From Bispira polyomma (Eukaryota), in the NCBI GenBank assembly GCA_965649765.1, contig OZ287755.1, forward strand, positions 43,028,001-43,092,000: a stretch of DNA of 64,000 bases, read 5' to 3'. The translations under genes were made by a program, and so were the position numbers. A model generated the notes under the pieces. It did not search any database. It saw nothing but the letters and a program-made list of their open reading frames with translations, and was not told the DNA's origin. Shown here one piece after another: positions 3,679 through 49,825 of the stretch; positions within the stretch are counted from its first letter, which is position 1, and every line of letters begins with the position of its first letter.

Positions 3679-4290
3679 CGACGAAACTATTTCCCCGTGT
3701 AACGGGGAATTAGTATTCAGTTCTAATTCCCCGTTCCATGATAAATTAATGCAAGTATTAATGCAAATTAGTACTACAAGTATTTAATATACGTTGGGTC
3801 CACAATATATATTCTAAACTCACATATCTGCAGACCTTGTTTTTATTACTTTTTTTTTATTAAGTCTGTGGTTGATGTATACCTCGGAAGTGAAGCACAT
3901 GTATGAGCGACAATGGCAGAATTTAATGCAAATGAAGCAATCTATCATCATGGAGATCACCCAGAAGCCCTGACTTCTATATAAGGATATTTAACTATCT
4001 CTGACCATTGACTCGGCAAGAACCGCTAACATATATTATACCTTATATTTACACATATTTAACCTGGAAGGAAGTAATTAATGGAAGTCCCTGACAGTAG
4101 CTATATTTATTTCTAGCAAATATGTGTACATACTTACATAAGTTGATGAAATAAATTTACACATTTAACCAATCAATATTTTATTACTTGTTTTTTTTTG
4201 GTGCTGTGGAAGTATAGTAATTATTTACCGTGGAACGGGGAACTAGAATACAAAACTAAATCCCTGTTACATGGGGATAAAGCCACTCCG
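3679..4290. mobile_element. MULE-like MITE
   Basis: Imperfect TIRs (ttccccgt/acggggaa blocks), 9-bp flanking duplication tatttagta/tatttatta; core shared with 44600-45115. Confidence 0.65.
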
Positions 4291-5894: not shown

Positions 5895-6443
5895 ATGGAA
5901 AACATACAGCCCCCTCAATCTATGGACTCTACAGCCCATGCAAATTTGGTTGACAGTTGGCAAAGTTTTAAAGACAGATTTAAATTATATTTACAAGCTT
6001 CTGGTGCAGGTAAGAAGGAATCAATCCAGGTGGCTATTCTTTTGCACACCATGGGAGAGCAGGTGATCGAAACTTTCCGCTCGTTCACATTTGACCCTTC
6101 AGAAAATAAGGAAAAGTTATCGCCAGTGATTGAAAAAATTGAGGCCTATTTTACACCAAAGACTAATGTAGTGTTACAGAGGTTCAACTTCAACAAGGCC
6201 ACCCAGGCTGAAGGAGAGCACACTGAAAGCTATCTGGCTCGTCTGAGGACATTGATCAAAACTTGTGAGTATAGTGATTTTGCAGATTCCCTGATCAGGG
6301 ATAAGATTGTTGTTACCACAACCAATAAAGGTTTAAAGGAAAGATTACTGAGGGAAGCAGATTTGACTTTGGGAAAATGTATCGATCTCTGTAAAACAGC
6401 AGAGGCAAAAAGACGCCATATTGAGCAGCTTCAACAGGGTACT
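5895..6443 (+). pseudogene. gag: Gypsy gag, 5' part
   Basis: W..FK.RF..YL.ASG and LIRDKIV...LKERLLREADLTL motifs; cut off at the Maverick TSD. Confidence 0.9.
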
Positions 6444-6622
6444 AGTAGTAGTAGGGGGAGTGATTCACGCTGATGATTAGTGCCCAATTTGTGCCCAATC
6501 CCATATACTTGTGCACAAAATGAAAAAAGCCCGTGACCTTGAGTCTTTTTGCCCTCTTATAGATTTTTTACTTTGATTGAATACATTATGATTTTGCTAC
6601 CTCCACATACTACCACCTTCTT

Positions 6623-7087
6623 CTAAAAACCTCCAAGTTGGAACATGGGTTCTAATTTAGGTGCTACTTTTAGTACAGCATTCTTGTAACAGAAGCTTTC
6701 TGTCCTTTCTACTCTCTTCCACATTTTAACTATTTGTCGCCAATCACTTACAGTTAAAGAGAATTCTCTCCCTCCACTGAATATTGAAAGGTATATTATA
6801 TCCCTCGGAAACTTTCTGAATTTGCCCATTTTATTATAGGAGAGTTCTTTCGTTATTCTAATTTTTTCAGATTCACTAATAGGAATTGACATCTTTGTAT
6901 TTTCTCTCCTTATCGCCTTGTTGATAGTGGGTATACTTCTGAATAATTTTTTGTAGCTTTCATCTCTTATTGTTATGTTGTTGAAACCAAAATATTTATT
7001 TCTTTCACTGAAAGATTTTCTTTTAATATTCAATGTTCTTCCCAATATGTCTTTTCCAATATCTACCGCAGTCTTTATTTGAGCCAT
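6623..7087 (-). CDS. Maverick hypothetical protein, possibly tandem PC4-like ssDNA-binding domains (intact copy)
   Basis: 154-aa ORF; ITIRDESYKKLFRSIPTINKAI and FSLTVSDWRQIVKMWKRVE resemble the PC4 ISL..EQW..L helix motif. Confidence 0.6.
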   Translation of the reverse strand: MAQIKTAVDIGKDILGRTLNIKRKSFSERNKYFGFNNITIRDESYKKLFRSIPTINKAIRRENTKMSIPISESEKIRITKELSYNKMGKFRKFPRDIIYLSIFSGGREFSLTVSDWRQIVKMWKRVERTESFCYKNAVLKVAPKLEPMFQLGGF

Positions 7088-7155
7088 TTTTACAAATGAA
7101 TGAAATTTTTATGAAGTCTACCTCCCTCTTATACCTTATTACTTTATTTGTATAG

Positions 7156-7503
7156 TCAAGTAACCTTTTTTTCAAATTTTAATCTCACCGCATTCAAACC
7201 TTTTGTTCTTTTTATGCTAAAGTGGTAGCTGCTGTCTGTGTCATATAATTTAATGAATAGTTCTTTCATTGTTAATTCTTTTATTTCAAAACATAAATGA
7301 ATTCTTTCACTTATGTTTATTTTATGTAACAAAACCAAATGTGTAGTTCTTTGACATATACTCTTGTAAAAGATTTGGTTCTTATAGAACTCTGTTAAAT
7401 CTCTTAGTTCTAAAGCATTTTGAAATCCTTCACCTTCTTTCTTCCAACTCATAATGGCTTTTGAATCACAATCTGGATTGTTTATTGTCAATAAATGTGA
7501 CAT
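7156..7503 (-). CDS. Maverick hypothetical protein (115 aa)
   Basis: ATG-initiated ORF with identical translation in both arms. Confidence 0.7.
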   Translation of the reverse strand: MSHLLTINNPDCDSKAIMSWKKEGEGFQNALELRDLTEFYKNQIFYKSICQRTTHLVLLHKINISERIHLCFEIKELTMKELFIKLYDTDSSYHFSIKRTKGLNAVRLKFEKKVT

Positions 7504-7616
7504 TTTAAAATTACTGTGTTTGTGTTGTTGTTGTTTTTTTTCCTATTCTTTAAAGGTGAAATGAGAACAACTATTTTTTTCTAAACTACCTTTATTTTCA
7601 ATATTATTTACACGAA

Positions 7617-7619
<3 letters not shown>

Positions 7620-7655
<36 letters not shown>
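7620..7655. repeat. (TA)n microsatellite, mirrored at about 25342-25377
   Basis: Read directly from the sequence. Confidence 0.9.
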
Positions 7656-7658
<3 letters not shown>

Positions 7659-7730
7659 CAAAATAAAATACACAAATCACCATACATATAATATTATTTA
7701 CAACACACTATGAACATATTTCTAAACTAT

Positions 7731-8408
7731 TTAGTCATCTAACAGAATCATTTTTATGTAACCACAGTCTTTTGAATGTCTTTGATGTTCGGCTAAGGGC
7801 TCGTCCAGGTACTCCCAGGAATGAAGAATTATAGAACACCAGAGGCACTGACATCTGTCCCCTAAACCAGTGTACATCAATCCAGCTCTGGCTAACTTTT
7901 CTGGTTTTACTATCTTGCCATCGCTCCACCCTCTGTAGCTTTCCAGACGATTTTGATACAACTTATAATTACCTCTTTCAATTTTTGTCAATTCACTAGG
8001 GAATACAGTTTGCACGTATTCGCAATTCGGGTTGAGTTTGGAGTGCATTTTCAACGGTTCATCAAAGTAATTCCAGTTCTTCACCTGCATGTAACACCAC
8101 GGACATACACAACTGTCACCATAACCAGTGTATCGAAATCCCCCCCTGGCTGCATCCTCTCCACTCACTCCAGTACTTTTTGGCCAACCTCTGAAACTTT
8201 CTAATCTGTTTTTGAAGATTTTGTAATCTAGCCAATCCCTAGTCATAGCCAGTGATTCTTCCTCACATTGGAAATTGCGGAACTTTTTTGTCAGTTCACT
8301 TATTCTGTCTTGCATATCTATTCTTCTTCTATAACTAGATGCAGAGGCTGCAACAACACAGTCAGTCTCATCTTCCCTTGCTCTCCTTTGAGTTGTATTC
8401 TCTGCCAT
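7731..8408 (-). CDS. IAP-like protein with two BIR domains and no RING (intact, intronless)
   Basis: Two RLESF/Y..W...LA.AG/GF.YTG.GD.C.C.WC...H...C motifs; likely ATG at 8408 downstream of a TATAAA box. Confidence 0.92.
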   Translation of the reverse strand: MAENTTQRRAREDETDCVVAASASSYRRRIDMQDRISELTKKFRNFQCEEESLAMTRDWLDYKIFKNRLESFRGWPKSTGVSGEDAARGGFRYTGYGDSCVCPWCYMQVKNWNYFDEPLKMHSKLNPNCEYVQTVFPSELTKIERGNYKLYQNRLESYRGWSDGKIVKPEKLARAGLMYTGLGDRCQCLWCSIILHSWEYLDEPLAEHQRHSKDCGYIKMILLDD

Positions 8409-8519
8409 CTTGTTTCCTTTCTGACTGCAATGTGGTTGCTTTCCCAATTTATATCCTTTTTTTAATATTGAGTCATTTTCTTTTATTTCACTAAAACATT
8501 ACTCACAATTCATAATTTA

Positions 8520-8800
8520 TTCATCAATTACATCATCACTATTTACCTTGTCAGCATTGTTTAACCAATTACCTCATCATTATTTACTTTGACTATTTAT
8601 CCAAATACTCTGTCATTATTTACTTTGACAGCTTTGTTTAACCAACAACCTCATCATTATTTACTTTGACAACTTGACCAAATAATGTCTCACTATTTAC
8701 TTTGACAGCTTTGTTTATCCAATTACCTCATCATTATTTACTTTGTTCATTTAACCAAATAATGTGTCAATATTTACTTTGACAGCATTGATTTATCTAC
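8520..8800 (-). repeat. Array of about 36-41-bp degenerate repeats upstream of the IAP (mirrored at about 24200-24470)
   Basis: Recurrent (TG)TCAAAGTAAATA units. Confidence 0.85.
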
Positions 8801-8839
8801 TTTGATGGTAATTGATTAAAAGGTTAAACCATTGGCATT

Positions 8840-9286
8840 TTAAATGAACTTTGAAATATAAAATGATTTTATATTCACATCATTAACTTTATAATCTTTA
8901 TCGAAAGTCTTTAAGATATCAGTATAGCTCTTTCCCCTACATTTATGGTAAGCGTAATATAGACAATATTCCCCACATAACATGCTCTTGTAACTTTGTA
9001 CTCTTGCGTTATTTTTGCTATAACTATCCTGATGTCTCAACACAAAATTTTCAAAACTTTTCGGAGCTAAATCACCTAAAGAATCAAAATATTCCGCCTC
9101 TTGTTTATTTACATACATTGCTACCCAATGTTCCCCTTCATGAGGGTAAGGTTTTGTGTTTACAATCAGAATTTTAGGTAAATTTTGAAATTTTACTGGT
9201 AATTCATTTGCTGCATATACACCGCCATAATATTTGCTGATGAATCTATCATTCAACATTTTTTCTTTTATCTCAGAAATATTCAT
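8840..9286 (-). CDS. Adenain-like cysteine protease (left copy, intact)
   Basis: IVNT...GEHWVA...EYFDSLG...VQ.....LCGEYC, giving the His-Asp-Gln-Cys catalytic set. Confidence 0.93.
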   Translation of the reverse strand: MNISEIKEKMLNDRFISKYYGGVYAANELPVKFQNLPKILIVNTKPYPHEGEHWVAMYVNKQEAEYFDSLGDLAPKSFENFVLRHQDSYSKNNARVQSYKSMLCGEYCLYYAYHKCRGKSYTDILKTFDKDYKVNDVNIKSFYISKFI

Positions 9287-10381
9287 TGTTCTACAACTCT
9301 TGCCTCATCAATAGTTAACATAGATGGGAAACGAGCATATAATATTGCAGTCACACTTTCTACTAAAGCTTTTCCAAAATTTACAGTTATTCTTGTGTGA
9401 CCCTTTTTACGTTCTGATTTAAGTTCACCACTCACATTACTGTCTATATTAAACACATAAAGACAATATCCATTCGGATAATCTGTATATTTAATAAGAT
9501 TGTTCTCATTTTCACCATATCTCCCATAAAACAAGCTATTATATGCTTCTGCGTATTATCCTCCAGTAAAAGTAGGTCTGTTAGACAAATATCCTTCTTT
9601 ATAATTTGGTCGAAGTGGTCTGCATGGAACGGGCACACCATCTACACTGAATTCCAAGTAATTTAAATGGTAGTGATGAAATTTAAATGGATTTACAGTA
9701 TAGCTACCGCTATAACCTTCTCCTGGAACAAAACCCACAATTAATTTGCTAGGAACCTCTCCATGAAAAATTCCATCATCACTCCACATCATATTACCTT
9801 TTGGTATGGTAAAAGTCTTAAATTCGCTTTGCCAGAAAGGGTATAATGCTGGTCCCATCTTCAAAGCCTTTGCATGAGCTAGTACGAGCTCGGGACTTAA
9901 TTTTACCTGACAGATCTTTAAAGCGGCATTAATAATTTCTATCTTATACTCCTTATCTCCATCCTTTGCCATTAATCTGAATCTATCAGTGCTGGGATAT
10001 AATTTTAGATTGATCTGCACTCCGTTTACAATGAGTCTATCTTGATCGGCAATATCCACATGTAAGGGGCCGTATAAGTCCACTACTGTGCTTGCTGCAC
10101 ATCTGTCTTGTCTAGTAGCAAACCCTATATTGTCATCTCCAGTTACATCATTATGAGTAGCAGCTGTGTCATTTGCAACCAATTCATTTTCCAACTGTCC
10201 CTGCTGACTCACAAAACTATTATGTAACCATACATCTATCAAACTTTTGTATGGATAGTTAATTCCAACACCTGGTGAAATATTGATTTGCTGTAGAGTT
10301 AGATCTGCCTGACGAAAGAGAGAATGTAATGTTAAATTGACGGGACCAACTATAGCAGTCGACCCTAAGTCACTTCCATTA
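9283..10381 (-). pseudogene. Major capsid protein, C-terminal two-thirds (left copy; N-terminus missing, TAA at 9556-9558)
   Basis: VGPVNLTLHSLFRQ, GPLHVDIADQDRLIVNGV and NPFKFHHY motifs typical of Polinton major capsid proteins. Confidence 0.9.
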
Positions 10382-10666
10382 GGCTTCTGTCAATCTCTGT
10401 GTTAATGAATTCACTACCCCAAAGTTATACATACTATCATCTTTAACCATACATTATAAAATAACTTTACTTGTAACTTACTCATAACACCACTGTCCTA
10501 AACATAATATAATTTGAAATTCAAATAATAGAGACTGTAGCTGGAGGTAAAAGAATAATATCATATATAAAGAAATTTGGAAACCCAGAACATTCTAATA
10601 AGGCATACTAATAAAATTTAAAACTCATCTTCCTCTTGTCATATTCCTTAATTTACCCAAATTAAT

Positions 10667-11148
10667 TTAGAATTCATCCTCCTCTGTTTCTTTCCTAGAT
10701 AATGACCTGGTCACCATCCTGTTTGCACCCTTACCTTTACCCCCTTCCTTGTCTACCTTAGTTTTAACCTGAGTTTCAGAATTTACTGGGGAGGGCCTTA
10801 TAAACAATGTGGTTTCTTCCTCGTCATTTTGTTCAACTTCCCCCATATCAAATGCTGGTACCCTAAACATAACACCCTGTCCCCTACACCTTTTACATCT
10901 AACCAAAATAAATATAATCACTGTGGGAATACCTCCAGCTACAGCCCCTATCAGTAAACTTATTTCAACAATGTGTATTGTTTCTCTCTTGTTTTCCTCT
11001 GCTTCATCATCACCCTCCTGTCCATTCCTCTCCTCTTCCTTCACTTCCACCCTCCCCTCTTCCTTCACTTCCTCCCTCTCCTCTTCCTTCACTTTCACCC
11101 TATCCTCCTCCTTCTCCTCCTCTTCCCCTTCATCCTCGCCTGGTTCAT
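10667..11148 (-). CDS. Glu-rich single-pass membrane protein fragment or exon
   Basis: Acidic tract, hydrophobic ISLLIGAVAGGIPTVIIFILV followed by RCKRCR stop-transfer; preceded by an acceptor-like tattgtAG and no good ATG. Confidence 0.55.
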
Positions 11149-11200
11149 CTACAATATAAAATACATATACCACTTATTAATATTTTTTTACTCTATTTAG

Positions 11201-12016
11201 CAACCAGCATGGGTGATCTCCATTACTGCCCAGCAACCAAAACAGCAGTCTCAGCGACACCTTCAACTCTTACTACCTCCTCGCCAGCAGCCACAACAAC
11301 AGGCTGTTCACCCTCAACAGCAGCACCTACAACAGGCTGATCAGTCTCAACAACAGGCTCTTCACCCTCAACAGCAGCACCTACAACAGGCTGACCAGCC
11401 TCAACAACAGGCTCTTCACCCTCAACAGCAGCACCTACAACAGGCTGACCAGTCTCAACAACAGGCTCTTCAACCTCAACAGCAGCACCTACAACAGGCT
11501 GATCAGCCTCAACAACAGGCTCTTCACCCTCAACAGCAGCACCTACAACAGGCTGATCAGTCTCAACAACAGGCTCTTCACCCTCAACAGCAGCACCTAC
11601 AACAGGCTGATCAGCCTCAACAACAGGCTGTTCACCCTCAACAGCAGCACCTACAACAGGCTGATCAGTCTCAACAACAGGCTCTTCACCCTCAACAGCT
11701 GCCACAACATCAGGCTGGACAGCCTCAACAGCAGCACCTACAACAGGCTATTCGGTCTCAACAGCTGCCACAACATCAGGCTGATCACCCTCAACAGCAG
11801 CTCCTACAACAGGCTCTTCGGCCTCAACAGCTGCCACAACATCAGGCTGATCAGCCTCAACAGCAGCTCCTACAACAGGCTCAGCATCCTCAACTACATG
11901 ACCTACAACAGGCTGAGTACCAATTTCAAGAGTTACCTCTACTCAGTCTTCAAGATTTAGATGATTTTGAAGATTTTTTTGAGAGGGGAGACAATGAATT
12001 CCTCTATGGAGGTTAA
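11201..12016 (+). CDS. Gln-rich repeat protein fragment with acidic C-terminal tail
   Basis: Frame open from 11201 after an acceptor-like ctctatttAG; (QQQALHPQQQHLQQADQS/P)n, then LQDLDDFEDFFERGDNEFLYGG. Confidence 0.5.
   Translation, partial: QPAWVISITAQQPKQQSQRHLQLLLPPRQQPQQQAVHPQQQHLQQADQSQQQALHPQQQHLQQADQPQQQALHPQQQHLQQADQSQQQALQPQQQHLQQADQPQQQALHPQQQHLQQADQSQQQALHPQQQHLQQADQPQQQAVHPQQQHLQQADQSQQQALHPQQLPQHQAGQPQQQHLQQAIRSQQLPQHQADHPQQQLLQQALRPQQLPQHQADQPQQQLLQQAQHPQLHDLQQAEYQFQELPLLSLQDLDDFEDFFERGDNEFLYGG
11294..11915. repeat. 54-bp minisatellite (about 8 units plus degenerate longer units)
   Basis: caacaacaggctcttcaccctcaacagcagcacctacaacaggctgatcagtct repeated. Confidence 0.92.
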
Positions 12017-12054
12017 TGTTGACTCCTCTAGTGAGGATGAAGTTTACTACTGAT

Positions 12055-12360
12055 GTAGATTTTGAAGAAGTATCTTATTATCACTCAGTAGTAGATTTTG
12101 TAGACATATCTTAATATCATTTTTTTATTTCTTTTATTAACTCAGTAGTAGATTTTGTAGAAGTATCTTATTATCACCTTTTTTATTTCTTTTTTTAATT
12201 AAATCTTTTAAAAACTTCTCTTCCAAAGTCTCTTATTTCTATCAACACAGAACAATAATCATTTATCACAAATTTGTTATTGAAGTGTATTACTGAATCC
12301 TTTTTTATACAACTATGTAGATTTTCTAGAACTATCTTAATGATACCTTTTTATTTATTT
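12055..12360. repeat. Short degenerate direct repeats
   Basis: gtagattttgtagaagtatcttattatcac-like unit occurs four times. Confidence 0.7.
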
Positions 12361-13707
12361 TTTAAAATGAATATTAAATGTATATTAAATGTTTTGACAA
12401 CTTCACCTCCAAAGTCTATTTTTTCTAACAATAAAGAACAATAATCATTTCACACAACTGTGATATTTTTATTTGATTTGTTTTCACAATAACTACACCA
12501 CCTCCTCAAACAAATAATTCTACCACCACCACCTTAAAGAGTTCTACATCTTAACTAGCTTCTAATACCATTTGTCAATTCAGTACATCCTTTGACTGTC
12601 AGCTCAGGTATGGGATAATAGGTACAGTCAACTTGGCTACGGACAGTCAGGAGCACCATTTTAGGAATATTTTCCTTTAAAAGGAAAGTGTCTATCTGAG
12701 TGATCTTGCTCTCGTATATAATCAAAGTACTGATTTTATCATCCGAGATTTTGTAAATGTTTGCATTTGTCACAAGCCTGCAATACAGCTTCCCCCCCCC
12801 CCCCCCCCCTCAGAAAACGACATTCCTGTGCTTCTCCCAACCCCATCCAACAAACTAAAATAGTGCTCAATATTAAACACCTCATATTTATCACGTACAA
12901 ACAAAAAAAGAAATCTATGAGATATGGATATAGTCATTTGAGAGACAAAACAATTAATCTCTCATCCCGTTTTACGAGGTCTTGAATTAAAAGAATAAGC
13001 TAACTACTTGATTTGCTTGGGGCTAAACTTCATCCGTCTGCTGAGAAATTTTTCCTAGAAATACCCATAAGATGCAACAACATTCAAAATTAAACCACCA
13101 TTTAATTCTAAAAACCATAGAAATGCAAGAAATAGATTAATTTTATAGTAGAATTTCGTTTATAGTAACTGGACGAATTGTCTGTCCCTGACCGAATAAG
13201 GTGTCCGTGCAAATTGCCTGCTGCTTGTGTTTATAATTTGATTGCCTGACATAAATCGGACACCAAATAATAAATGTGTCATAACTTCAAATTAAATAAC
13301 TTTATTGACCTAACAATACTGTACTTCCTTGAATATTGGTACTGTAATTGTTTCATATGAAACTCGTGGTCCATTTTCTACCTAGATTATTATTTAAAAT
13401 TTGACAGTCGATTTACAACTGGCGGACGAATTATAACCAGAGGCAATACATTAAACTGTCAGGTGACATTAATAACACCCTCCGCCAATTAAGATCAGCC
13501 ACCAATATACAACGGTCTGTCAGCCCCGTGTCAGTCAAATCCGAGCGGTTACAAACTGTATATTATGATCGGATGATTTACAACTAGCGGGCGAATTTTA
13601 AACACAGGCAGTATAACCACATAACGCTGTGTAACCCTTTAATGCATATTTTATATTTTTCTCACCTCAAATCTTTCTCAAAACTGAAATAATCAGAGAT
13701 TAAAAAT

Positions 13708-14030
13708 ATGTTCACATCTTGCACAAGTATGTTATCCCACCAAATGAAACTAGTGGTCGGTACTAGGAATAGAACACTGGAGCTTCTTTCTGATAATCTG
13801 ATCAAAACACTAACCACTAAAAGATGGGAGATCATGTAATGGATAAAATGTTACAGCCAGCACACAGAAGCAATATAACAGATAGGAGCACTTAGTATTT
13901 AGCTTGTTTGTTGCACTGTATGTGAACAGACATCATTGTAGAAGTGTTCTCCCCCCATTTAAAATTTACAAACATAAAAAACAACTGATAGAGTAAAGGC
14001 TTCGGGAAACCTCACTCTCTGCTGTTGATA
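13708..14030. repeat. About 320-bp diverged direct repeat, copy 1 (begins with a minus-strand SINE head)
   Basis: Similar to 16163-16487; the first 110 bp also resemble 49708-49825. Confidence 0.8.
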
Positions 14031-16162
14031 ATTTGTCGCATCTCACAGGATGCGTTTTTACAAATGAAACCAGAACAAAGACATAGAACAACCATTCATA
14101 TATATGTGTCTAGAAACTTAACAAAACTCCTGCACAGAAATATTAGATTTAGGTCTTTGAGAAAACCAATTTTTTTTTTGGGGTGCAAAATTATTTAAAA
14201 TAAGGCATAAAAAAGGACACTGAAATATTAAAACAAAACAACAACAGAACCAATTAACAAAATTTACACATTATACAAATTGATAGATTTATCCTTTCTA
14301 TCCACTTTTATTTTTTTTCTAACTTGAAATGGCAAACTATGGGTCTTGTTACATTATCAATGCCTAACAGTCATTGTAGAGGTTCAAATGTTTGTGCTTG
14401 AACCATACACAGAGAGGCAGTAGTAAGTTTTAAGCCTGGCTGGCCAATAGGACAATAGATGGTCTGGCGTCCTCCGAGTAATGCTATTAATGCCTCCAAC
14501 TTCCTGTTTCTGTATGAAAAGATCTTGTTACCTATGATACTTTTACTGTTATAAAAGTTTTGGCATAGGTGTCACCTGGTTCTCATAAACCGCATGGTCT
14601 GTTGTTTTTTGTTTTTTTTCATTTATGTATTTAGTTGCCAGACATGTATGTGATAAGTTGGACTTGTCATAAGACAAGCACTAATTCCCGTTCATTTGCA
14701 TAGGGTGATTGCAAACTATAGATCACATTATAAATAGCCTGTGAAAGTGACTAGATGAACATAAAGCTTTGATAAAAAGAATACAATTTATTGCTTTGGG
14801 GCTCAAAATGTTTTTGTGATTGGTATAAATTTTTCGGTTAATTGTTGTTAACAGTAGGGCATATAAGTGTTCTGTTTAGGTTAATTGGGTAATGTGACAC
14901 TTCTATCAATGTCAGCTTCACTACATTCCGTCAACTAAAAATGTAAGCCCAGTGTTTAGATTCCTGAGAAACATTTATTCGTATTTACTGACACATGTGA
15001 TATTGCAAGGTAACAAATGGCAGGTTGCGAAACTTAGTCTTATTTGAATGAAGGAGGATTTTTGATATTTTTTGCGCACTTTGAGGCTGCTCGAGACGTC
15101 TTGAGACTTGCAGGAATGTTACAGCTCTGGAGTACGAATGTGCCATGTATTATTGTCATGTGTTACAAATATTTACCATAGAAATTGCCTGGCCACAATA
15201 CACACAGTTAAGGAGTTTAAATGTCAACACAAAGTAATAATTTTTTACATTAACGAACCAGTGCTACTGGCATGTTCTATTTGCAGGCAATAAAGGCAAA
15301 CATGAGTCTACAGTGGCAGATTCGAAGCAGGTTAGAGCATTGTTACATATGTACATTTATGTTTATCATTGCAAATGGTGTTATAATGCCATAGTAATTG
15401 GTATAGAATGTAATGCTGGAAAATATGCCTTGACAATTGTAAGACAAGTGTCCACAGTGATATTTGAGGGATAAATCAAGCTTTGGACTTTAGTAGTTAC
15501 AAAAAATGAAAGAAAAACATTATTTTCATTTACAATACAGTATTGTCAGTTACAAGCTTATTTTCGCTTCAGTACAGTATTGTCAGTTACAAGCTAAAAG
15601 TTGTGTGAGTGTGAGTTCGAATTTTAAGGCTGTTTTAATTTTAGAATTATAGTACAATACATTGCATGGTCTTTAAAGATGCTGCTTTTGTTGATATTCT
15701 TACTATATCTCTACACCCATCAGACATAATTCATTTAAAATCATCATCACAGATACTTTTTGTTATATCAGTGGTATTGTGTTACAATTGCCTAGTACCT
15801 CTAAAATGGTAAACGCTATAAGGAAACGACCTGTCCTAAAAATGGGCCTAGTCCCAAAAAATGACGAAAATATTCTTCAAACCTCCCATTGGAATGTAGT
15901 AGGCGAGGTCCATTCTTAAAGCGCGGCTTTTATTTCGAAACACCCACTTAAACAAAAACCTGCTGAGGAATGCAGTAAAGTGTCTATTGTCTTTGCAGTG
16001 ATGACTCCTTGGAATACTTTACGCAAATTAATTACATGTATTAATATATTTCATTTAATTGATCTTACTTTTGTAAAACTTAGATTGTACCAAGAAAAAA
16101 TACAGAAATATCAAATATTGAGAATACTATAATAATTGGTCATCTAAGCCACCAGTCAAACT

Positions 16163-16487
16163 TGTGTTCACACCTTGCACAAGCATGTTATCCCACCAAA
16201 TGAAACTATCGGCCAGTACCAAGAGTAGAACACAGACCCTTCTGATAATCAGATCAACACATTAACCACTAGATGATGGGGGATTGTGTAATAAAAATAA
16301 TGTTACAGCCAGCACACAGAAGCAATAACAGATAGGAGCACTTAGGATTTAGCTTGTTTGTTCCACTATGTGAACGGAAATCATTGTAAAGGTGTTTTCC
16401 CCATTTAAAATTTTACAAACACACAAAAATAACAGATAGGGTAAAGTGACTAAAGTGGTTGGGAAACCTCTCTCTGTGGTGTTGACA
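16163..16487. repeat. About 320-bp diverged direct repeat, copy 2
   Basis: Shared atgttatcccaccaaatgaaacta and gttacagccagcacacagaagcaata...gataggagcacttag blocks. Confidence 0.8.
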
Positions 16488-16700
16488 CCAACTCCCTCTT
16501 AAATATTGAGAATACTATATTAATGCAGATCAGATCGCCATTTATTTATTTATTTATCACCATGAAAAATTTAAAAAATGAGCCATTTATATAGTTCAGG
16601 CAACAAATTTAACTGTGTAGATATCTGTACATTTATTTATTATTCCCATAATTAAAATGCCCTTTGTCTTAAAGTACATTTTCAAAATTGAAATGAAATA

Positions 16701-17010
16701 GTGGTCTTTGTGGCCTAGCGGCCAGAGCATTTAACTTTGAATCAGAGGGTCCGAGAGGGTCACAGGTTTGATCCTTGCTGCAGGTCTGAAGATTGTACCC
16801 TTGGACAAGGTACTTTACACTAAGTTGTCCCTTTCCATCCAAGCGTATAAATGGGTATCTGGCTGCTAATGGGTGTTTAATCTCTGCACTGTATGTGGCA
16901 GAATAGCTAGCATATGCTCCCTTGGGGAGCTGAGTTGAACAATTGGTTGACAAGTGAAAGAACACAAATACACTCTAATTAACGTAATCTATTATATAAA
17001 GCACTTTCTG
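16701..17010 (+). mobile_element. tRNA-derived SINE with CORE-like central domain
   Basis: A-box tggcctagcgg, B-box-like ggtttgatcc, cccttggacaaggtactt core, tataaatgggta block. Confidence 0.75.
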
Positions 17011-17869
17011 TAAGAACCACTGTTTGCACAGATATATTTATCAGCTTTCTGAAACGTGTGGCTAATTTCACAATAATGTATTACCAGTATAATATTAAAC
17101 TTATAGGTCTCATATCAAGTTTTTAATATGCATGCAGTAAGATAACAGAACAAGCATAAACCTATATATATTTAACCTTTAATTGAGCTGTATGAGAGAA
17201 AGAAGACCATCTTTTTAAATAAAGATTGTGTACAGATACGACAGCTAAGAATAGCATATATAGGTTGTTAAAGTCCTAATGAGAAAAGAAAATACTAAAG
17301 TAAAGACAAATACATTGAAGTGGTTTTCTAGTGATAAGTAGTTACTTTAATTTGAAATGTATTATTTATTACTTTGTAACTTATACTGTCGTTCTCTAGT
17401 CTCAGTGTTTTTGATTGGAACTTAAAATGACAAATAAGCTGTCTCATGTTTTCACTGTACATTAAATGAATGAAGACATTTCAAGTTCATGAAGATCCAT
17501 TTCTCATGTCAGTTAAGTTACCAGTGTATTAATCAGTTGTGGAAGCTATAAATACCAATGATATAACAAACAAAATTGGGACAATATAGGACCAAAGTTT
17601 ACAGGTGGTATGTACTCATCATCAGGCCTGTGTCACATGCACACAGTTTGCAAGTTTATAGGTTTGCAATAATTATCAAATGATTTGATATGTGGTATAA
17701 AGACTATATATCTAAAATGTGTATATAGAAATAAATAAATCATATTTAAAACTTGTACCTTTACCAATAATAAACTCTTACTGTCATATACAGGACATGA
17801 TGTAAAATCGCAGATTTATGCATATCAATACATTGGTCAAAATTTGAATGATGTCAGTCCCTTGGTAAT

Positions 17870-18125
17870 CAGTTTAATGTTAATGTTTTACTCCTATAGT
17901 GCCACAATTTATGACCAGGCCTCCTCTGTGACACTTATCCAAATCAGTAGAATGAAAAGTTCGATAGGGGAATAGGTTCGTGATCAGAGTACAGTCGTGA
18001 CCAGGAGACAAAAGTTAAGACAGAAAAGCGAGTTGATACACATGTGTTCTGAGCTTTTCCCTGAAGCCTGTAATCCTTGTCTCATTGTTAAAGACAAGTA
18101 GGGAGACTATTCTACTCAGCAGCTG
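17870..18125 (-). mobile_element. L2-like LINE 3' remnant inside the Maverick
   Basis: NETRITGFREKLRTHVYQLAF*; clearly diverged homolog of 30433-30690. Confidence 0.75.
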
Positions 18126-18836
18126 TTTGTCCCTCTGTCCCAAAATACAAGGCTGGTTACAAGTGCACTGTTTTGGGCTCAATTTACTTGCATGGAACTG
18201 CACGAGTTCCAAGATGAGTCTGATAAAAATTTTTGTAAAGGCATATCAAAGTCAAGTCTCAATAATGCCATGGAGTTGTTTGAAAGTGTGCTTCATAACC
18301 AAATACCACTTTCTTCAACCAATATCGGTTTTAGAGCAAAAAACAATACAATTTTTACTTACATGCAGGATAGAGCAGGCTTCTCGTACTATTATATCAA
18401 AAAGGAGGTTTTGGATGACGGAATTCGTACCAAACCATTAAACATGGTTTTGAAACCATGGAAACAAAAAATTGTTATAGTTGAAAATGCTCTTGACCTT
18501 CTATCAAACGGTTTTTGCTTTGAGTTGAAAGTCGATGGAAAGACGTATTCAAGTGTTGAAGAATACTTTCAAGAAAGGGAACATGATTTCAATCCAAATG
18601 CAAACACTAGTTTGGAGGAGAATTGGGAGTGGTTTCAAGAAAGAGACAAGATTATGCAAGAAATTTTAAAAGTAAAACAGTGTTGTAATTTTGCTCAGGT
18701 CTTAAAAAATACTCGGAATTCTTATATATGTTACAATGTTTCAGATAATTTGTATTGGAATGTGGGTTTACCGCAGAGACTAGTGAAGGTTATAAATATT
18801 CTCATCCAGGTCAAAATCAAATGGGAGAGATATTGA
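18126..18836 (+). CDS. Maverick hypothetical protein, probably 5'-truncated
   Basis: The 214-aa ORF from 18192 stays open upstream to the LINE junction and lies in tandem with the ATPase. Confidence 0.6.
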   Translation, partial: FVPLSQNTRLVTSALFWAQFTCMELHEFQDESDKNFCKGISKSSLNNAMELFESVLHNQIPLSSTNIGFRAKNNTIFTYMQDRAGFSYYYIKKEVLDDGIRTKPLNMVLKPWKQKIVIVENALDLLSNGFCFELKVDGKTYSSVEEYFQEREHDFNPNANTSLEENWEWFQERDKIMQEILKVKQCCNFAQVLKNTRNSYICYNVSDNLYWNVGLPQRLVKVINILIQVKIKWERY

Positions 18837-18861
18837 TGAAAGTTAGAGAAACATTATAAAA

Positions 18862-19494
18862 ATGTCCATAAAATTTGAAGATCCAGCAAGTATACTTATT
18901 GCTGGTTGTAGTAATTCTGGTAAAACCACTTTTCTGTATCAGTTGTTAAAGTGTAAGGATGCAATGTTCCAGAAACCTGTATGTAAAATACTATACTGCT
19001 ATTCTGTTTGGCAAAATATTTTTGATAAATTACAAGATGAAATAAATATTAAGTTCATTAAGGGTCTGCCTGAGGAGATAGAGATAGATAGCATGAATGA
19101 CGGGAATCATAATATTTGTATAATAGACGATTTGCAGGAAGAAGTGTCTGGAAATAAATTTATTGAAAAATTATACACAACCCTCTGTCATCATTATTAC
19201 CTCACAGTAATAACTATTTTACAAAATTTATTTTATCAAGGTAAAAGCTTAAGAACAATCAATTTAAATAGTCATTATTTGATATTATTTAAAAACCCCC
19301 GAGATATAAATCAAATAAAGTATTTAGGAAACCAAACTGGGTTAAAGAAGACTTTAGAAGAAGCATATAAAAATGTAACAGACGAAAGCTACAATTATCT
19401 TTTAGTTGATCTCTCTCCGCACTCATCTACCCAATATAAATTAAGAAGTCATATTTTGCCGAAAGAAGATACTGTGGTATATCTTAGAAAGTAA
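18862..19494 (+). CDS. Packaging ATPase (A32/FtsK-like)
   Basis: Walker A GCSNSGKT, Walker B ICIIDD, ILQNLF...RTINLNSHYLILFKNPRD. Confidence 0.95.
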   Translation: MSIKFEDPASILIAGCSNSGKTTFLYQLLKCKDAMFQKPVCKILYCYSVWQNIFDKLQDEINIKFIKGLPEEIEIDSMNDGNHNICIIDDLQEEVSGNKFIEKLYTTLCHHYYLTVITILQNLFYQGKSLRTINLNSHYLILFKNPRDINQIKYLGNQTGLKKTLEEAYKNVTDESYNYLLVDLSPHSSTQYKLRSHILPKEDTVVYLRK

Positions 19495-20293: not shown

Positions 20294-21220
20294 ATGGACG
20301 AAAATCAGGAAAAATATCTACACGACCTTTATTACAATCCAAAAAATGCAGTGTCTTATAGCGGTTTCAATAAATTTTATAGCTTCATCCAAAAAAACAG
20401 TCAGCAAAATTTTTCCAAAAAGGATATTAGGGAATGGTTGGGAAAACAAGATGCTTTTGTCTTGCATCGACCTGTGATAAGACATATTAAACGTCCAATT
20501 ACCATTGCAGTGAGAAAAGACCAACGTGAGTACAAGAGCCTAATATTTAGAAATTGGTTAAAAGAAAAAGGAGTTCAACATTTCATGAGCACCAATGAAA
20601 CAAAGGTGGCGATGGCTGAAAGAGTAATAAAAACAATCAAACTAAAACTGTACCGAAGGATGACAGCAGAAAACAATTATAAATGGAATGATGCGCTTGC
20701 TAGTCTCACAGAGTCCTACAACAATTCCTTTCATAGAATGATTAAAACCACTCCTTCAAAGGTGAGGGAAATGGATGATTATGAGTTATGGAAAAATCAG
20801 TATATTAAAGACTACGATGTGAAAAAACCAAAATTAAAGAAAAACAAAAAACCAAGATCAGAAAAATTACCTTATAAATATAAAATAGGAGATATAGTAA
20901 AGGTTGCGTATCTATCCAGACCTTTCGAGAGAGAATACGATGAGAAATATTCTGGTGAAAATTTCACCGTTGCTGATAGAAATATAAATCAGGGTAAGGC
21001 TCAGTACAAATTGAAAGATTTAAATAACGAACTAGTATTGGGAAATTTTTTTAATAAGGAATTGCAAAAGGTTTATGTTTCTAAAGAGACCACATATCGA
21101 ATAGAAAAAATTCTGAAAAGTAGAAAAAGAGGGGGTAAAAAGGAATATTTAGTAAGGTGGGAAAATTATTCCTCAAAATTCGACAGCTGGGTGAAGGAAG
21201 AAGACATTCAGGATATATAA
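20294..21220 (+). pseudogene. Retroviral-like (c-) integrase with C-terminal chromodomain; catalytic core deleted in frame
   Basis: YYNPK..SYSG, WL..QDA..LH, KVAMAERVIKTIK, YNNSFHRMIKTTP, chromodomain YRIEKIL...EYLVRWENY...DSWV; the W.ADL...IDVFS...TD segment is missing at KDQ/REY. Confidence 0.9.
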
Positions 21221-22033: not shown

Positions 22034-23716
22034 ATGAATGTCTTACAGGAAAAGGTGGCTCTATTTCAAAAACCTTTGATAGATCCATCAGTCCATCATA
22101 TTGATTGGGTTGAATACAGACCAACCGGTCAAATTAAAAGTGGAAATGTAATTGAATTTAATGTAACGAGGATGGGGCGGATTATATAGATTTGAAGAAA
22201 AGTAGATTGCATATTTCAATGAAAATTACAAATAGTAATGGAAGTGACAAGGAAGGGGGTAAAGGTAAGGGTGCAAACAGGATGGTGACCAGGTCATTAT
22301 CTAGGAAAGAAACAGAGGAGGATGAATTCTAAATTAATTTGGGTAAATTAAGGAATATGACAAGAGGAAGATGAGTTTTAAATTTTATTAGTATGCCTTA
22401 TTAGAATGTTCTGGGTTTCCAAATTTCTTTATATATGATATTATTCTTTTACCTCCAGCTACAGTCTCTATTATTTGAATTTCAAATTATATTATGTTTA
22501 GGACAGTGGTGTTATGAGTAAGTTACAAGTAAAGTTATTTTATAATGTATGGTTAAAGATGATAGTATGTATAACTTTGGGGTAGTGAATTCATTAACAC
22601 AGAGATTGACAGAAGCCTAATGGAAGTGACTTAGGGTCGACTGCTATAGTTGGTCCCGTCAATTTAACATTACATTCTCTCTTTCGTCAGGCAGATCTAA
22701 CTCTACAGCAAATCAATATTTCACCAGGTGTTGGAATTAACTATCCATACAAAAGTTCGATAGATGTATGGTTACATAATAGTTTTGTGAGTCAGCAGGG
22801 ACAGTTGGAAAATGAATTGTTTGCAAATGACACAGCTGCTACTCATAATGATGTAACTGGAGATGACAATATAGGGTTTGCTACTAGACAAGACAGATGT
22901 GCAGCAAGCACAGTAGTGGACTTATACGGCCCCTTACATGTGGATATTGCCGATCAAGATAGAGTCATTGTAAACGGAGTGCAGATCAATCTAAAATTAT
23001 ATCCCAGCACTGATAGATTCAGATTAATGGCAAAGGATGGAGATAAGGAGTATAAGATAGAAATTATTAATGCCGCTTTAAAGATCTGTCAGGTAAAATT
23101 AAGTCCCGAGCTCATACTAGCTCATGCAAAGGCTTTGAAGGTGGGACCAGCATTATACCCTTTCTGGCAAAGCGAATTTAAGACTTTTACCATACCAAAA
23201 GGTAATATGATGTGGAGTGATGATGGAACTTTTCATGGAGAGGTTCCTAGCAAATTAATTGTGGGTTTTGTTCCAGGAGAAGGTTATAGCGGTAGCTATA
23301 CTGTAAATCCATTTAAATTTCATCACTACCATTTAAATTACTTGGAATTCAGTGTAGATGGTGTGCCCGTTCCATGCAGACCACTTTGACCAAATTATAA
23401 AGAAGGATATTTGTCTAACAGACCTACTTTTACTGGAGAACAATACGCAGAAGCATATAATAGCTTGTTTTATGGGAGATATGGTGAAAATGAGAACAAT
23501 CTTATTAAATATACAGATTATCCGAATGGATATTGTCTTTATGTGTTTAATATAGACAGTAATGTGAGTGGTGAACTTAAATCAGAACGTAAAAAGGGTC
23601 ACACAAGAATAACTGTAAATTTTGGAAAAGCTTTAGTAGAAAGTGTAACTGCAATATTATATGCTCGTTTCCCATCTATGTTAACTATTGATGAGGCAAG
23701 AGTTGTAGAACAATGA
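22034..23716 (+). pseudogene. Major capsid protein (frameshift near 22168, 369-bp insert 22249-22617, TGA at 23387)
   Basis: N-terminus MNVLQEKVALFQKP...WVEYRPTGQI....IEFNV/DYIDLKKSRLHI is not in the ORF track; the gene resumes NGSDLGSTAIVGPVNL after the insert. Confidence 0.9.
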
Positions 23717-24159
23717 ATACTTCTGAGATAAAAGAAAAAATGTTGAATGATAGATTCATCAGCAAATATTATGGCGGTGTATATGCAGCAAATGAATTAC
23801 CAGTAAAATTTCAAAATTTACCTAAAATTCTGATTGTAAACACAAAACCTTACCCTCACGAAGGGGAACATTGGGTAGCAATGTATGTAAATAAACAAGA
23901 GGCGGAATATTTTGATTCTTTAGGTGATTTAGCTCCGAAAAGTTTTGAAAATTTTGTGTTGAGACATCAGGATAGTTATAGCAAAAATAACGCAAGAGTA
24001 CAAAGTTACAAGAGCATGTTGTGTGGGGAATATTGTCTATATTACGCTTACCATAAATGTAGGGGAAAGAGCTATACTGATATCTTAAAGACTTTCGATA
24101 AAGATTATAAAGTTAATGATGTGAATATAAAATCATTTTATATTTCGAAGTTCATTTAA
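23713..24159 (+). CDS. Adenain-like cysteine protease (right copy, intact)
   Basis: Same motifs as the left copy; ATGA overlap with the capsid stop. Confidence 0.93.
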   Translation: MNTSEIKEKMLNDRFISKYYGGVYAANELPVKFQNLPKILIVNTKPYPHEGEHWVAMYVNKQEAEYFDSLGDLAPKSFENFVLRHQDSYSKNNARVQSYKSMLCGEYCLYYAYHKCRGKSYTDILKTFDKDYKVNDVNIKSFYISKFI

Positions 24160-24589
24160 AATGCCAATGGTTTAACCTTTTAATCAATAACCATCAAAGT
24201 AGATAAATCAATGCTGTCAAAGTAAATACTGACACATTATTTGGTTAAATGAACAAAGTAAATAATGATGAGGTAATTGGATAAACAAAGCTGTCAAAGT
24301 AAATAGTGAGACATTATTTGGTCAAGTTGTCAAAGTAAATAATGATGAGGTTGTTGGTTAAACAAAGCTGTCAAAGTAAATAATGACAGAGTATTTGGAT
24401 AAATAGTCAAAGTAAATAATGATGAGGTAATTGGTTAAACAATGCTGACAAGGTAAATAGTATAATGTAATTGATGAATAAATTATGAATTGTGAGTAAT
24501 GTTTTAGTGAAATAAAAGAAAATGACTCAATATTAAAAAAAGGATATAAATTGGGAAAGCAACCACATTGCAGTCAGAAAGGAAACAAG

Positions 24590-25266
24590 ATGGCAGAGAA
24601 TACAACTCAAAGGAGAGCAAGGGAAGATGAGACTGACTGTGTTGTTGCAGCCTCTGCATCTAGTTATAGAAGAAGAATAGATATGCAAGACAGAATAAGT
24701 GAACTGACAAAAAAGTTCCGCAATTTCCAATGTGAAGAAGAATCACTGGCTATGACTAGGGATTGGCTAGATTACAAAATCTTCAAAAACAGATTAGAAA
24801 GTTTCAGAGGTTGGCCAAAAAGTACCGGAGTGAGTGGAGAGGATGCAGCCAAGGGGGATTTCGATACACTGGTTATGGTGACAGTTGTGTATGTCCGTGG
24901 TGTTACATGCAGGTGAAGAACTGGAATTACTTTGATGAACCGTTGAAAATGCACTCCAAACTCAACCCGAATTGCGAATACGTGCAAACTGTATTCCCTA
25001 GTGAATTGACAAAAATTGAAAGAGGTAATTATAAGTTGTATCAAAATCGTCTGGAAAGCTACAGAGGGTGGAGCGATGGCAAGATAGTAAAACCAGAAAA
25101 GTTAGCCAGAGCTGGATTGATGTACACTGGTTTAGGGGACAGATGTCAGTGCCTCTGGTGTTCTATAATTCTCCATTCCTGGGAGTACCTGGACGAGCCC
25201 TTAGCCGAACATCAAAGACATTCAAAAGACTGTAGTTACATAAAAATGATTCTGTTAGATGACTAA
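24590..25266 (+). pseudogene. Two-BIR IAP-like gene, right copy, frameshifted near 24851
   Basis: Split over ORFs 24551-24916 and 24763-25266; 1 nt shorter than the left copy in the G run. Confidence 0.9.
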
Positions 25267-25338
25267 ATAGTTTAGAAATATGTTCATAGTGTGTTGTAAA
25301 TAATATTATATGTATGGTGATTTGTGTATTTTATTTTG

Positions 25339-25382
<44 letters not shown>

Positions 25383-25493
25383 TTTGTGTAAATAATATTG
25401 AAAATAAAGGTAGTTTAGAAAAAAATAGTTGTTCTCATTTCACCTTTAAAGAAAAGGGAAAAAAAACAACAACACAAACACAGTAATTTTAAA

Positions 25494-25841
25494 ATGTCAC
25501 ATCTATTGACAATAAACAATCCAGATTGTGATTCAAAAGCCATTATGAGTTGGAAAAAAGAAGGTGAAGGGTTTCAAAATGCTTTAGAACTAAGAGATTT
25601 AACAGAGTTCTATAAGAACCAAATCTTTTACAAGAGTATATGTCAAAGAACTACACATTTGGTTTTGTTACATAAAATAAACATAAGTGAAAGAATTCAT
25701 TTATGTTTTGAAATAAAAGAATTAACAATGAAAGAACTATTCATTAAATTATATGACACAGACAGCAGCTACCACTTTAGCATAAAAAGAACAAAAGGTT
25801 TGAATGCGGTGAGATTAAAATTTGAAAAAAAGGTTACTTGA
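25494..25841 (+). CDS. Maverick hypothetical protein (115 aa), right copy
   Basis: Same translation as 7156-7503. Confidence 0.7.
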   Translation: MSHLLTINNPDCDSKAIMSWKKEGEGFQNALELRDLTEFYKNQIFYKSICQRTTHLVLLHKINISERIHLCFEIKELTMKELFIKLYDTDSSYHFSIKRTKGLNAVRLKFEKKVT

Positions 25842-25909
25842 CTATACAAATAAAGTAATAAGGTATAAGAGGGAGGTAGACTTCATAAAAATTTCATTCA
25901 TTTGTAAAA

Positions 25910-26374
25910 ATGGCTCAAATAAAGACTGAGGTAGATAATGGAAAAGATATATTGGGAAGAATATTGAATATTAAAAGAAAATCTTTCAGTGAAAGAAATA
26001 AATATTTTGGTTTAAACAACATAACAATAAGAGATGAAAGCTACAAAAAATTATTCAGAAGTATACCCACTATCAACAAGGCGATAAGGAGAGAAAATAC
26101 AAAGATGTCAATTCCTATTAGTGAATCTGAAAAAATTAGAATAACAAAAGAACTCTCCTATAATAAGATGGGCAAATTCAGAAAGTTTCCGAGGGATATA
26201 ATATACCTTTCAATATTCAGTGGAGGGAGAGAATTCTCTTTAACTGTAAGTGATTGGTGACAAATAGTTAAAATGTGGAAGAGAGTAGAAAGGACAGAAA
26301 GCTTCTGTTACAAGAATGCTGTACTAAAAGTAGCACCTAAATTGGAACCCATGTTCCAACTTGGAGGTTTTTAG
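25910..26374 (+). pseudogene. Right copy of PC4-like ORF with CGA>TGA stop at 26258-26260
   Basis: Collinear with the intact copy at 6623-7087. Confidence 0.7.
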
Positions 26375-26548
26375 AAGAAGGTGGTAGTATGTGGAGGTAG
26401 CAAAATCATAATGTATTCAATCAAAGTAAAATATCTATAAGAGGGCAAAAAGACTCGAGGTCACGGGCTTTTTTCATTTTGTGCACAAGTACATGGGATT
26501 GGGCACTAATCATCAGCGTGAATCACTCCCCCTACTACTACTGGTACT

Positions 26549-30294: not shown

Positions 30295-30432
30295 GTTTCT
30301 AGTTCTAATAATCTATATATAGTCCTGGATTGACCTAAAAATATATAATGTAGCATTTTCTCTCTACTTTAGGATTTAATTTTTTAATTTAAATTAGAAT
30401 AAATCAGGAAGGAAATGTTTAGTTGAAACAAA

Positions 30433-49629: not shown

Positions 49630-49825
49630 TTGAGCTTTTGCCCAAGAATCTGTCCTTGGAGATTGTCCTCATTGACAGAGTATGGTCATCCAAGCCACAA
49701 GGCAAACTTGTGTTCACATCTGGCCCAAGGAGCTTATCTCACCAAATGAAACTAGAGTTCTGTAGTGGGAATAGAACCTGGAACCTTCTGATCATTAGAC
49801 CAACTCCATAACCACTAGACCATCT
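49630..49825 (-). mobile_element. tRNA-derived SINE (degenerate)
   Basis: Minus strand has tggtctagtgg A-box, ggttctattcc B-box and ccttgggccag core. Confidence 0.55.

Follow-up and report, generated by a model that had tools for sequence, protein, structure and literature searches.

An old host-type segment in the polymerase B position of a young, non-autonomous Maverick

Mavericks (Polintons) that carry genes as cargo, and mobile polintons that lack polymerase B (polB) and carry transposable elements, have both been published. An initial annotation of the locus described here proposed Mavericks as vehicles for segmental transduplication; the carriage of host and transposable element DNA is established already, and novelty is limited to the type of cargo, namely bulk, old, non-coding DNA. 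In butterflies, polintons without polB but with LINE or Gypsy cargo continued to amplify. In the parts of that study on which we draw (10.1101/2025.02.07.637071), gene-containing arms of ~2 kb, on which capsid and protease genes lie, occur among the polintons; the loss of polB coincides with the presence of foreign DNA, as it does here, and in one group the insert replaces polB. The butterfly cargo is a single recognisable transposable element, the LINE sharing 95% identity with an active family, and mobility is evident from several copies; here the cargo is old and composed of unique DNA together with decayed repeats, the arms reach 4.3 kb and the element is seen in one copy. The same study calls it unclear whether insertion or polB loss came first. 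Nematode Mavericks are similar in having a variable, host-derived region of 2-5 kb within their termini; they differ, as far as the portions of the report considered here go, in having intron-bearing cargo genes and in being largely complete elements that cross species (10.1101/2022.07.12.499685), while here no gene was found among the cargo frames scanned at the Pfam curated cut-off, and the element is defective. Pack-MULEs also hold host fragments inside terminal repeats and are moved in trans, but belong to another superfamily and, according to the sections of the source used, are mostly 1-2 kb long and contain gene fragments, none of those reported being longer than 7 kb (PMC6431247). As in such Pack-type elements, host-derived DNA lies between the termini of the single copy in view here.

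The Maverick occupies positions 6444-26542 (20,099 bp) of the window, by which we mean the whole 64-kb stretch of Bispira polyomma DNA that was analysed. It has terminal inverted repeats with the ends AGTAGT...ACTACT and lies within the gag gene of an older Gypsy-type LTR element (5543-30295, plus strand; LTRs 86% identical, K2P 0.11). A 6-bp target-site duplication is present at 6438-6443 and 26543-26548 (both plus strand), and the gag frame resumes at the right copy; the single duplication and the unbroken frame imply that both ends of the Maverick belong to one integration. The end motif (AGT)2//(ACT)2 has been described for Mavericks, and the length of ~20.1 kb falls within the 12.7-24.6 kb of intact vertebrate elements, although the terminal inverted repeats, at 4.3 kb, are longer than the range of 46-1,447 bp in the part of the survey consulted (PMC8097293).

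The left arm (6444-10753, minus strand) contains two unknown ORFs, an IAP gene, a protease-like gene with a weak match to the viral cysteine protease S273R (E 0.017) and the 3' part of a presumed major capsid gene; the right arm (22246-26542, plus strand) is its inverted copy. Between them there are 40 substitutions and five gaps across 4,295 aligned sites (K2P 0.009). The value of ~1% given by the initial annotation is therefore confirmed as a measurement, but it cannot serve as a clean clock, given the surplus of silent changes in the outer arm genes (14 of 21, one of the 14 sites being at an alignment gap, against 6.5 expected; P ~0.001). No such surplus is seen in the capsid part (1/10); the division into capsid and outer parts was chosen post hoc, and the undivided set gives 15/31 silent changes (P 0.024). 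The surplus fits a lineage that had gene-containing arms and replicated under selection, or else an origin of the arms in two sister genomes.

Inward of the left arm is a mostly single-copy, viral-type part (10667-12587, minus strand) with an acidic ORF containing a hydrophobic stretch, a 54/33-bp repeat array and AT-rich repeats. On the right, all on the plus strand, are a putative packaging ATPase in open frame (18862-19494; a weak match to Pox_A32, E 0.002, under the curated cut-off), a putative integrase with a chromodomain (20294-21220) and the 5' part of the presumed capsid gene (22034-22630), with a frameshift near 22170. The integrase has a transposase-family match (E 1e-6) besides the chromodomain but no Pfam rve match, apparently through in-frame loss of a portion of the core, the extent of which we presume from motifs of the family. 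The capsid gene is broken by ~370 bp also found in the left part and flanked by 13-bp copies (22236 and 22618); its assignment to capsid is presumptive, and as a candidate double jelly-roll protein it gave no family match and a single-sequence model with a pLDDT of 29. Seven single-copy viral ORFs (1,155 codons) contain no internal stops, and two frameshifts adjoin them. When decay of 5% per lineage was simulated, three or fewer disablements occurred in none of 300 runs at each of three indel ratios, a test that is partly circular in that the open stretches themselves defined the ORF limits. The viral part of the element is young and its genes nearly intact. The core gene set of an autonomous Maverick is nevertheless not intact: polB is truncated, the capsid-like gene interrupted and the integrase devoid of an rve match. 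The element thus appears defective in polymerase, integrase and capsid, and would require help for all trans functions. Intact relatives with DNA context were confirmed in genome contigs for 0/136 and 0/111 candidate stretches, and no phage match was found.

What is left of polB (18224-18836, plus strand; frameshift near 18800) corresponds to profile positions 1329-1538 of 1560, the last 15% of the gene; we take it to be a protein-primed polymerase from the length of 151 relatives and from characteristic motifs. Homology begins no earlier than 18213-18225. Profile positions 1-1328 are absent across the entire window, in which 18213-18797 is the sole scoring remnant, so that ~85% of the gene (~4 kb) is missing. 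An extension of polB into 18060-18224 was considered and rejected, the best frame there scoring 0.9 bits, against up to 3.6 for controls and at least 57 for true homologues.

In place of the missing part there is a host-like block of ~5.6 kb (12588-18223), the left end of which lies at ~12530-12615 and the right end at ~18198-18226. The initial annotation had recognised the block but placed it at 12780-18125; the change point in composition and the start of polymerase homology now widen it by 200 bp on the left and 100 bp on the right, to ~12590-18223. The left change point falls at 12563-12593 under three of four Markov orders, and at 12848 under order 1. A minus-strand ORF (12558-12791) was considered as a viral gene that would put the left junction at 12790; it has no relatives among 60 candidates and no Pfam match, and its Atlas leads are weak (recognition 1681).

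The block is ORF-poor and host-like, as had been proposed. Over 12810-18210, 5.6% of the sequence falls in ORFs of at least 100 aa; the figure is 6-11% for three host flanks and 81% for the right half of the viral sequence. Whereas the right viral parts have a GC skew of +0.21 to +0.23 and the left ones of -0.11 to -0.36, that of the cargo is 0.006. All ten 500-bp windows of the cargo are host-like in a third-order Markov test, which is weak and chiefly senses coding-strand bias (it called viral 3/33 held-out host windows and 10/16 held-out viral windows). About 20 of the 50 listed frames in the cargo were scanned against Pfam for host genes, giving two weak matches under the curated cut-off, and a search for structured RNA gave one chance match only.

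The repeats in the block are old. An internal duplication (13709-14028 and 16165-16485) is 81% identical (E 1e-81, K2P 0.135), its two minus-strand copies extending over 13700-14030, with a SINE-like head and shared flank, and 16137-16487. The 'two SINE heads' that were originally annotated beside this duplication are present but are not separate features: they lie in the duplicated unit of 320 bp, making up its left third, and heads and duplication are thus one. The head at 16137-16292 also matches 49683-49838 outside the element (minus strand; 76%), and an L2-type 3' tail (17876-18124, minus strand), interrupted by a stop and a frameshift at places that stay open in the outside copy, matches that copy (30431-30678, minus strand) at 82% over 17876-18122 and 30431-30676. 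The recurrence of cargo families outside the Maverick is thus borne out, as is the diverged duplication itself. A decayed CORE-like SINE (16700-16960, plus strand) has no relative in the window. The SINE, CORE and L2 labels are our assumption from motifs typical of such families: no tRNA match was found for the cargo repeats with Rfam or ARAGORN, an A/B-box scan gave a match in the outside copy at 49778 and in no cargo copy, the peptide of the L2-type tail yielded no named relative, and four short repeat motifs were not found in the supplements of two papers. In total, 916 of 5,636 bp of cargo have a relative elsewhere in the window, and the chance of all four repeats falling in this 28% of the element is low (P 0.006). 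Pairs of cargo repeats differ by 13-29% (K2P 0.135-0.285, measured between copies rather than from a family consensus), compared with 0.9% for the arms, which agrees with the annotation's claim that the repeats are far more diverged than the arms.

It is supported by this contrast, and by the nearly intact viral genes, that the cargo entered as one old host-type segment and not repeat by repeat. Two central claims of the initial annotation are therefore upheld: that the repeats did not insert singly, for which the flank shared by the duplicated copies also speaks, and that old host-type DNA sits where the polymerase should be. Its further claim, that the segment travelled with the element, may hold and forms part of our preferred explanation. 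What can be seen directly at this locus is one integration site, young viral genes, an old block and the loss of polB. Our preferred explanation, to which we give roughly an even chance, is that polB gave way to the segment in a Maverick lineage that was non-autonomous and later integrated here by means of helper enzymes. A piece of old host chromosome of ~5.6 kb would have been joined to a Maverick genome in a single step, taking the place of ~4 kb of polB and of DNA upstream of it. This loading would have occurred before the present integration, in an earlier copy that may have been a free replicating genome or a previous insertion, and its outcome would be a non-autonomous element that retained its cis-acting ends. 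A helper Maverick would then have provided polymerase and integrase, and the composite, with its cargo, would have inserted into the Gypsy gag gene. The route of loading may have been a Helitron-type rolling-circle insertion into polB with loss of upstream DNA; alternatively, replication may have switched from one template to another. Neither a second composite copy nor a donor locus is present within the 64-kb window. As the locus is young, its junctions sharp and its cargo neutral, the loading step should be readable directly from the donor. If the composite recurs, the polB position of helper-dependent elements would be a slot able to take arbitrary host DNA; if it does not, the locus is another rearranged Maverick fossil.

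The right junction carries a Helitron-type 3' end (18193-18223, plus strand): a 19-nt palindrome (18193-18211), a spacer of 8 nt, CTGA (18220-18223) and then T, precisely where polymerase homology starts. The palindrome begins 31 nt and stops 12 nt ahead of the end of CTGA, and its folding has a z-score of -2.7 (3/200 shuffles fold as well). This end suits insertion before or after Maverick integration equally. In the passages of the two studies considered, HLE1 elements terminate in a hairpin and CTRR (PMC11417382), and in Helraiser, which inserts before T, a 19-bp palindrome lies at a distance of 11 nt from the end (PMC4778049); the hairpin, CTRR and T, the carriage of host DNA, as in 3' read-through capture, and the lack of a target duplication are shared with the present locus, which differs in that it lacks a RepHel gene, a confirmed 5' end and a second copy, and in that at least 4 kb of target DNA is missing.

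It is conceivable, if rather unlikely, that a discrete HLE1-type Helitron, or a Helitron read-through product with old host DNA, entered polB after integration, a later deletion having removed the 5' portion of polB, perhaps together with the Helitron 5' end, and that the Maverick never moved the cargo. The motif has a low chance of arising in one 30-nt stretch (0.0007-0.009 under five settings with T required, 0.002-0.027 without), but it was noticed before the scan settings were defined, and with both junctions allowed the chance is 0.007-0.08, or 0.017-0.23 without T. An A|TC candidate for the 5' end occurs at 12549 and another at 12588, the latter within the left change-point interval; the motif occurs eight times in 390 nt and hence has little weight, and no relative of either putative end occurs in the window (at best 21/30 and 20/30 bases agree). 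A clean Helitron insertion is precise, with contiguous flanks, and does not delete 4 kb. Since it would leave the target DNA in place, a second event would be needed within a short time to remove the ~4 kb of polB missing upstream of the right junction. The signature is also silent on the order of insertion and integration. A discrete, young transposable element with its own termini and target duplication was what the initial annotation had named as telling against capture: the right terminus is indeed of Helitron type, and no terminal inverted repeats or target duplication were seen around the cargo among the 25 longest of 542 inverted pairs listed (11900-18900). A relay is also imaginable, although we hold it doubtful, in which Helitron-type read-through loaded an old, gene-free 5.6-kb segment, displacing polB, after which the polymerase-less composite, of unit length, would have been copied and integrated by functions supplied in trans. 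If so, Mavericks would serve to duplicate host DNA in bulk within a genome, and the composite, packageable in size, could ferry host DNA between hosts.

Ectopic gap repair in place, which we also regard as unlikely, would require a break in the left half after integration, invasion of a truncated sister Maverick elsewhere by the terminal repeat, synthesis through the right end of the sister into adjoining host DNA, and rejoining within polB. One event would account for the cargo, for the polB loss and for a left arm taken from the sister, and the silent surplus confined to the outer arms would reflect arms of two origins, partly homogenised. The 370-bp capsid-gene piece, the 13-bp duplication and a 3-bp microhomology are within the ranges of repair duplications (PMC2671141), and ectopic rearrangement of a locus in nematodes has been linked to Polinton copies (PMC11414722). 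However, a copy tract of ~12 kb is required, whereas captured pieces in a vertebrate survey average 162-302 bp, the longest being 3,424 bp, with deletions of 1-15 nt (PMC2671141), and the Helitron-type end is left unexplained.

Misjoins are known to arise at long inverted repeats of near-identical sequence, and the 4.3-kb arms, together with sister copies, might have led two loci or haplotypes to be joined in the assembly. We consider such a chimera improbable: the window contains no N, 40 scattered substitutions between the arms argue against collapse, the sequence at both cargo junctions, which are 1.8 kb and 4 kb inward of the arms, is single-copy, and one target duplication is common to both outer ends.

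Insertion of the repeats one at a time into a resident Maverick, the remainder decaying in place, is largely refuted and has next to no chance of being correct: a young copy of another subfamily might appear old when only pairs are compared, but window-shared host repeats make up 0 of 8,319 bp of the right viral part, no trace of polB lies within the cargo, the adjoining viral ORFs are nearly intact, ~80% of the cargo is not recognisable as repeat, and the two copies of the duplication share ~200 bp of flank at a K2P of 0.12.

Within the Maverick/Polinton element (Maverick), a block of host-like DNA sits where protein-primed polymerase B (polB) should be. A polB profile built from 29 long relatives (out of 151 fetched) has its sole match in the window at 18213–18797, equivalent to positions 1329–1538 of 1560, and a motif lying directly upstream in 61 of the 151 relatives is missing here; about 4 kb of polB has therefore been lost, which places the right junction at about 18198–18226. 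The limits first proposed for the block (12780–18125) were not borne out, as the left change point falls at 12563–12593 under Markov orders 2–4 (12848 under order 1). An open frame at 12558–12791, for which relatives were sought and none found, could shift the left junction to 12790. A run of about 18 C residues occupies 12792–12809, near the left limit first proposed. On the other side, the polymerase tail runs on, at 18440–18836, into a further domain that is common to many relatives, resembles NADAR and has no match in Pfam.

The block is poor in open frames: ORFs of at least 100 aa cover 5.6% of it, much like the 6–11% of the host flanks and far from the 81% of the right viral half. Its strand skew falls to zero, and ten of ten windows are host-like in a Markov test, the host and viral controls of which are only moderately separated. 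The internal duplication (13700–14030 and 16137–16487) was confirmed, as were both relatives outside the element, a tail at 30431–30678 and a head at 49683–49838. Both SINE heads described previously belong to the duplicated unit and hence add no evidence of their own. SINE, CORE and L2 are assumed labels, which received no confirmation from Rfam, ARAGORN, a protein search or a motif search of the searchable supplement files of two papers (PMC4758252 among them). The outside tail copy is an open frame closed by a stop; the inside copy is broken. At 13140–13660, CpG is undepleted (o/e about 1, versus 0.1–0.8 elsewhere) and a 39-bp repeat recurs at 165-bp spacing; this is possibly a younger TE fragment without clear termini.

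It is well supported that the block is an old segment. The two copies of the internal duplication stand at K2P 0.135, the two tails at 0.157 and the heads at 0.215–0.285 from their outside relative, compared with 0.009 between the arms, although between-copy distances are not insertion ages and only the duplication, whose copies share 200 bp of flank, puts a date on the block, provided that this flank belongs to no longer repeat. Of the 5,636 bp in the block, 916 are repeats shared with the rest of the window; in the right viral part such repeats take up 0 of 8,319 bp. Piecemeal insertion after integration is rejected, in keeping with the original reading.

The Maverick itself spans 20,099 bp (6444–26542), is flanked by a single 6-bp duplication and breaks the gag reading frame of an LTR element of Gypsy type (5543–30295) whose LTRs are 86% identical (K2P 0.11, 134 sites). 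The gene order of its right half is polymerase tail, ATPase, integrase with chromodomain, presumed capsid, protease-like and inhibitor of apoptosis (IAP), several of these labels being assumed or drawn from weak matches. The two-BIR IAP gene is present in both arms (7731–8498 and 24500–25266; Pfam BIR, E 2e-35), the right copy being frameshifted. A 54/33-bp tandem array at 11201–12016 has two plus-strand open frames, one Gln-rich (271 aa), and an acidic, Val-rich minus-strand frame. AGT repeats open the element and ACT repeats close it, the end motif given for Mavericks (PMC8097293).

The inverted arms (6444–10753 and 22246–26542) differ by 40 substitutions and five gaps in 4,295 sites. At 4.3 kb, these gene-containing arms are about twice as long as the 2-kb ones reported for butterfly polintons (10.1101/2025.02.07.637071). 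They are no clean clock. Silent changes are 15 of the 31 coding differences (9.5 expected, P 0.024); the outer genes account for 14, out of 21 differences there (6.5 expected, P about 0.001), and the capsid part for one out of ten, a division made post hoc and with one site at an alignment gap. Part of the 0.9% divergence is probably older than the loss of selection, which would make the insertion younger. The pattern suggests either that the lineage was replicating with genes in its arms or that the two arms derive from sister genomes. About 370 bp native to the left part interrupts the presumed capsid gene on the right side (22236–22630) between two directly repeated 13-bp copies, with 3-bp microhomology and a join that keeps the reading frame of the left ORF's tail; several template-switch-like events lie in the past of this lineage. 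Evidence of youth independent of the arms comes from seven single-copy ORFs, which lack an internal stop; two frameshifts adjoin them. At 0.5% decay per lineage, 76–96% of simulated runs had three or fewer disablements, and at 5% 0 of 300 did, an upper-bound argument, since the ORF limits were taken from open stretches.

As to how block and Maverick came together, the likeliest course, at an even chance, is a scheme in which the block would have taken the place of polB in an earlier Maverick copy and the composite would then have integrated here using helper enzymes; transport by the Maverick, as originally proposed, is likewise finely balanced. Loading before integration is favoured by the one target duplication, the young genes, a length within the range of a unit (12.7–24.6 kb in vertebrates; PMC8097293) and direct precedent; against it, no feature dates the loading step. 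In nematode Mavericks, host genes ride in a cargo region of 2–5 kb (10.1101/2022.07.12.499685), and polB-less polintons have amplified while bearing LINE or Gypsy cargo (10.1101/2025.02.07.637071); Pack-MULE sizes are given elsewhere (PMC6431247).

Where polymerase homology sets in, the right junction shows a palindrome of 19 nt, a further 8 nt, and CTGA followed by T. Canonical Helitrons (HLE1) terminate in a hairpin and CTRR and go in between an A and a T (PMC11417382); in Helraiser, a palindrome of 19 bp lies 11 nt from the terminus, and flanking DNA is captured through read-through (PMC4778049). Against the window-wide background, the chance of the motif, which was spotted before the scan was set, is 0.0007–0.009 per 30-nt stretch, or 0.007–0.08 allowing both junctions. 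The 5′ TC candidate at the left junction is uninformative, and neither putative end has relatives within the window. A Helitron alone would not remove 4 kb. Helitron-type delivery overall has somewhat less than an even chance, weighted equally before and after integration; its in-place form, a later insertion plus a deletion, is unlikely. Gap repair from an ectopic template, a sister locus, is about as unlikely: Polinton-linked rearrangement is on record (PMC11414722), but the pieces captured during repair in a vertebrate survey are much shorter (PMC2671141). Misassembly is very improbable.

The feature is real. Among the papers listed by our literature search, which covered few subscription journals and no bioRxiv supplements, none describes old non-coding host DNA in bulk, or a Helitron-type end, in the polB position; a case of this kind may exist in those journals or supplements.

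In the flank, a second hairpin with CTGG and then T, at 49309 on the minus strand, is a possible Helitron-type end; a sequence related to the 53650–54400 tandem family lies about 120 bp away. Tandem arrays of 146–168-bp units lie at 31628–32404, 34037–34546, 45854–47257 and 53672–54404, and MITE-like inverted-repeat elements at 2762–3386, 3692–4277, 40001–40725, 44606–45109, 52205–52726 and 59932–60807. A minus-strand frame at 45375–45845 with an emp24/GOLD match (E 9e-6) is probably a host exon.
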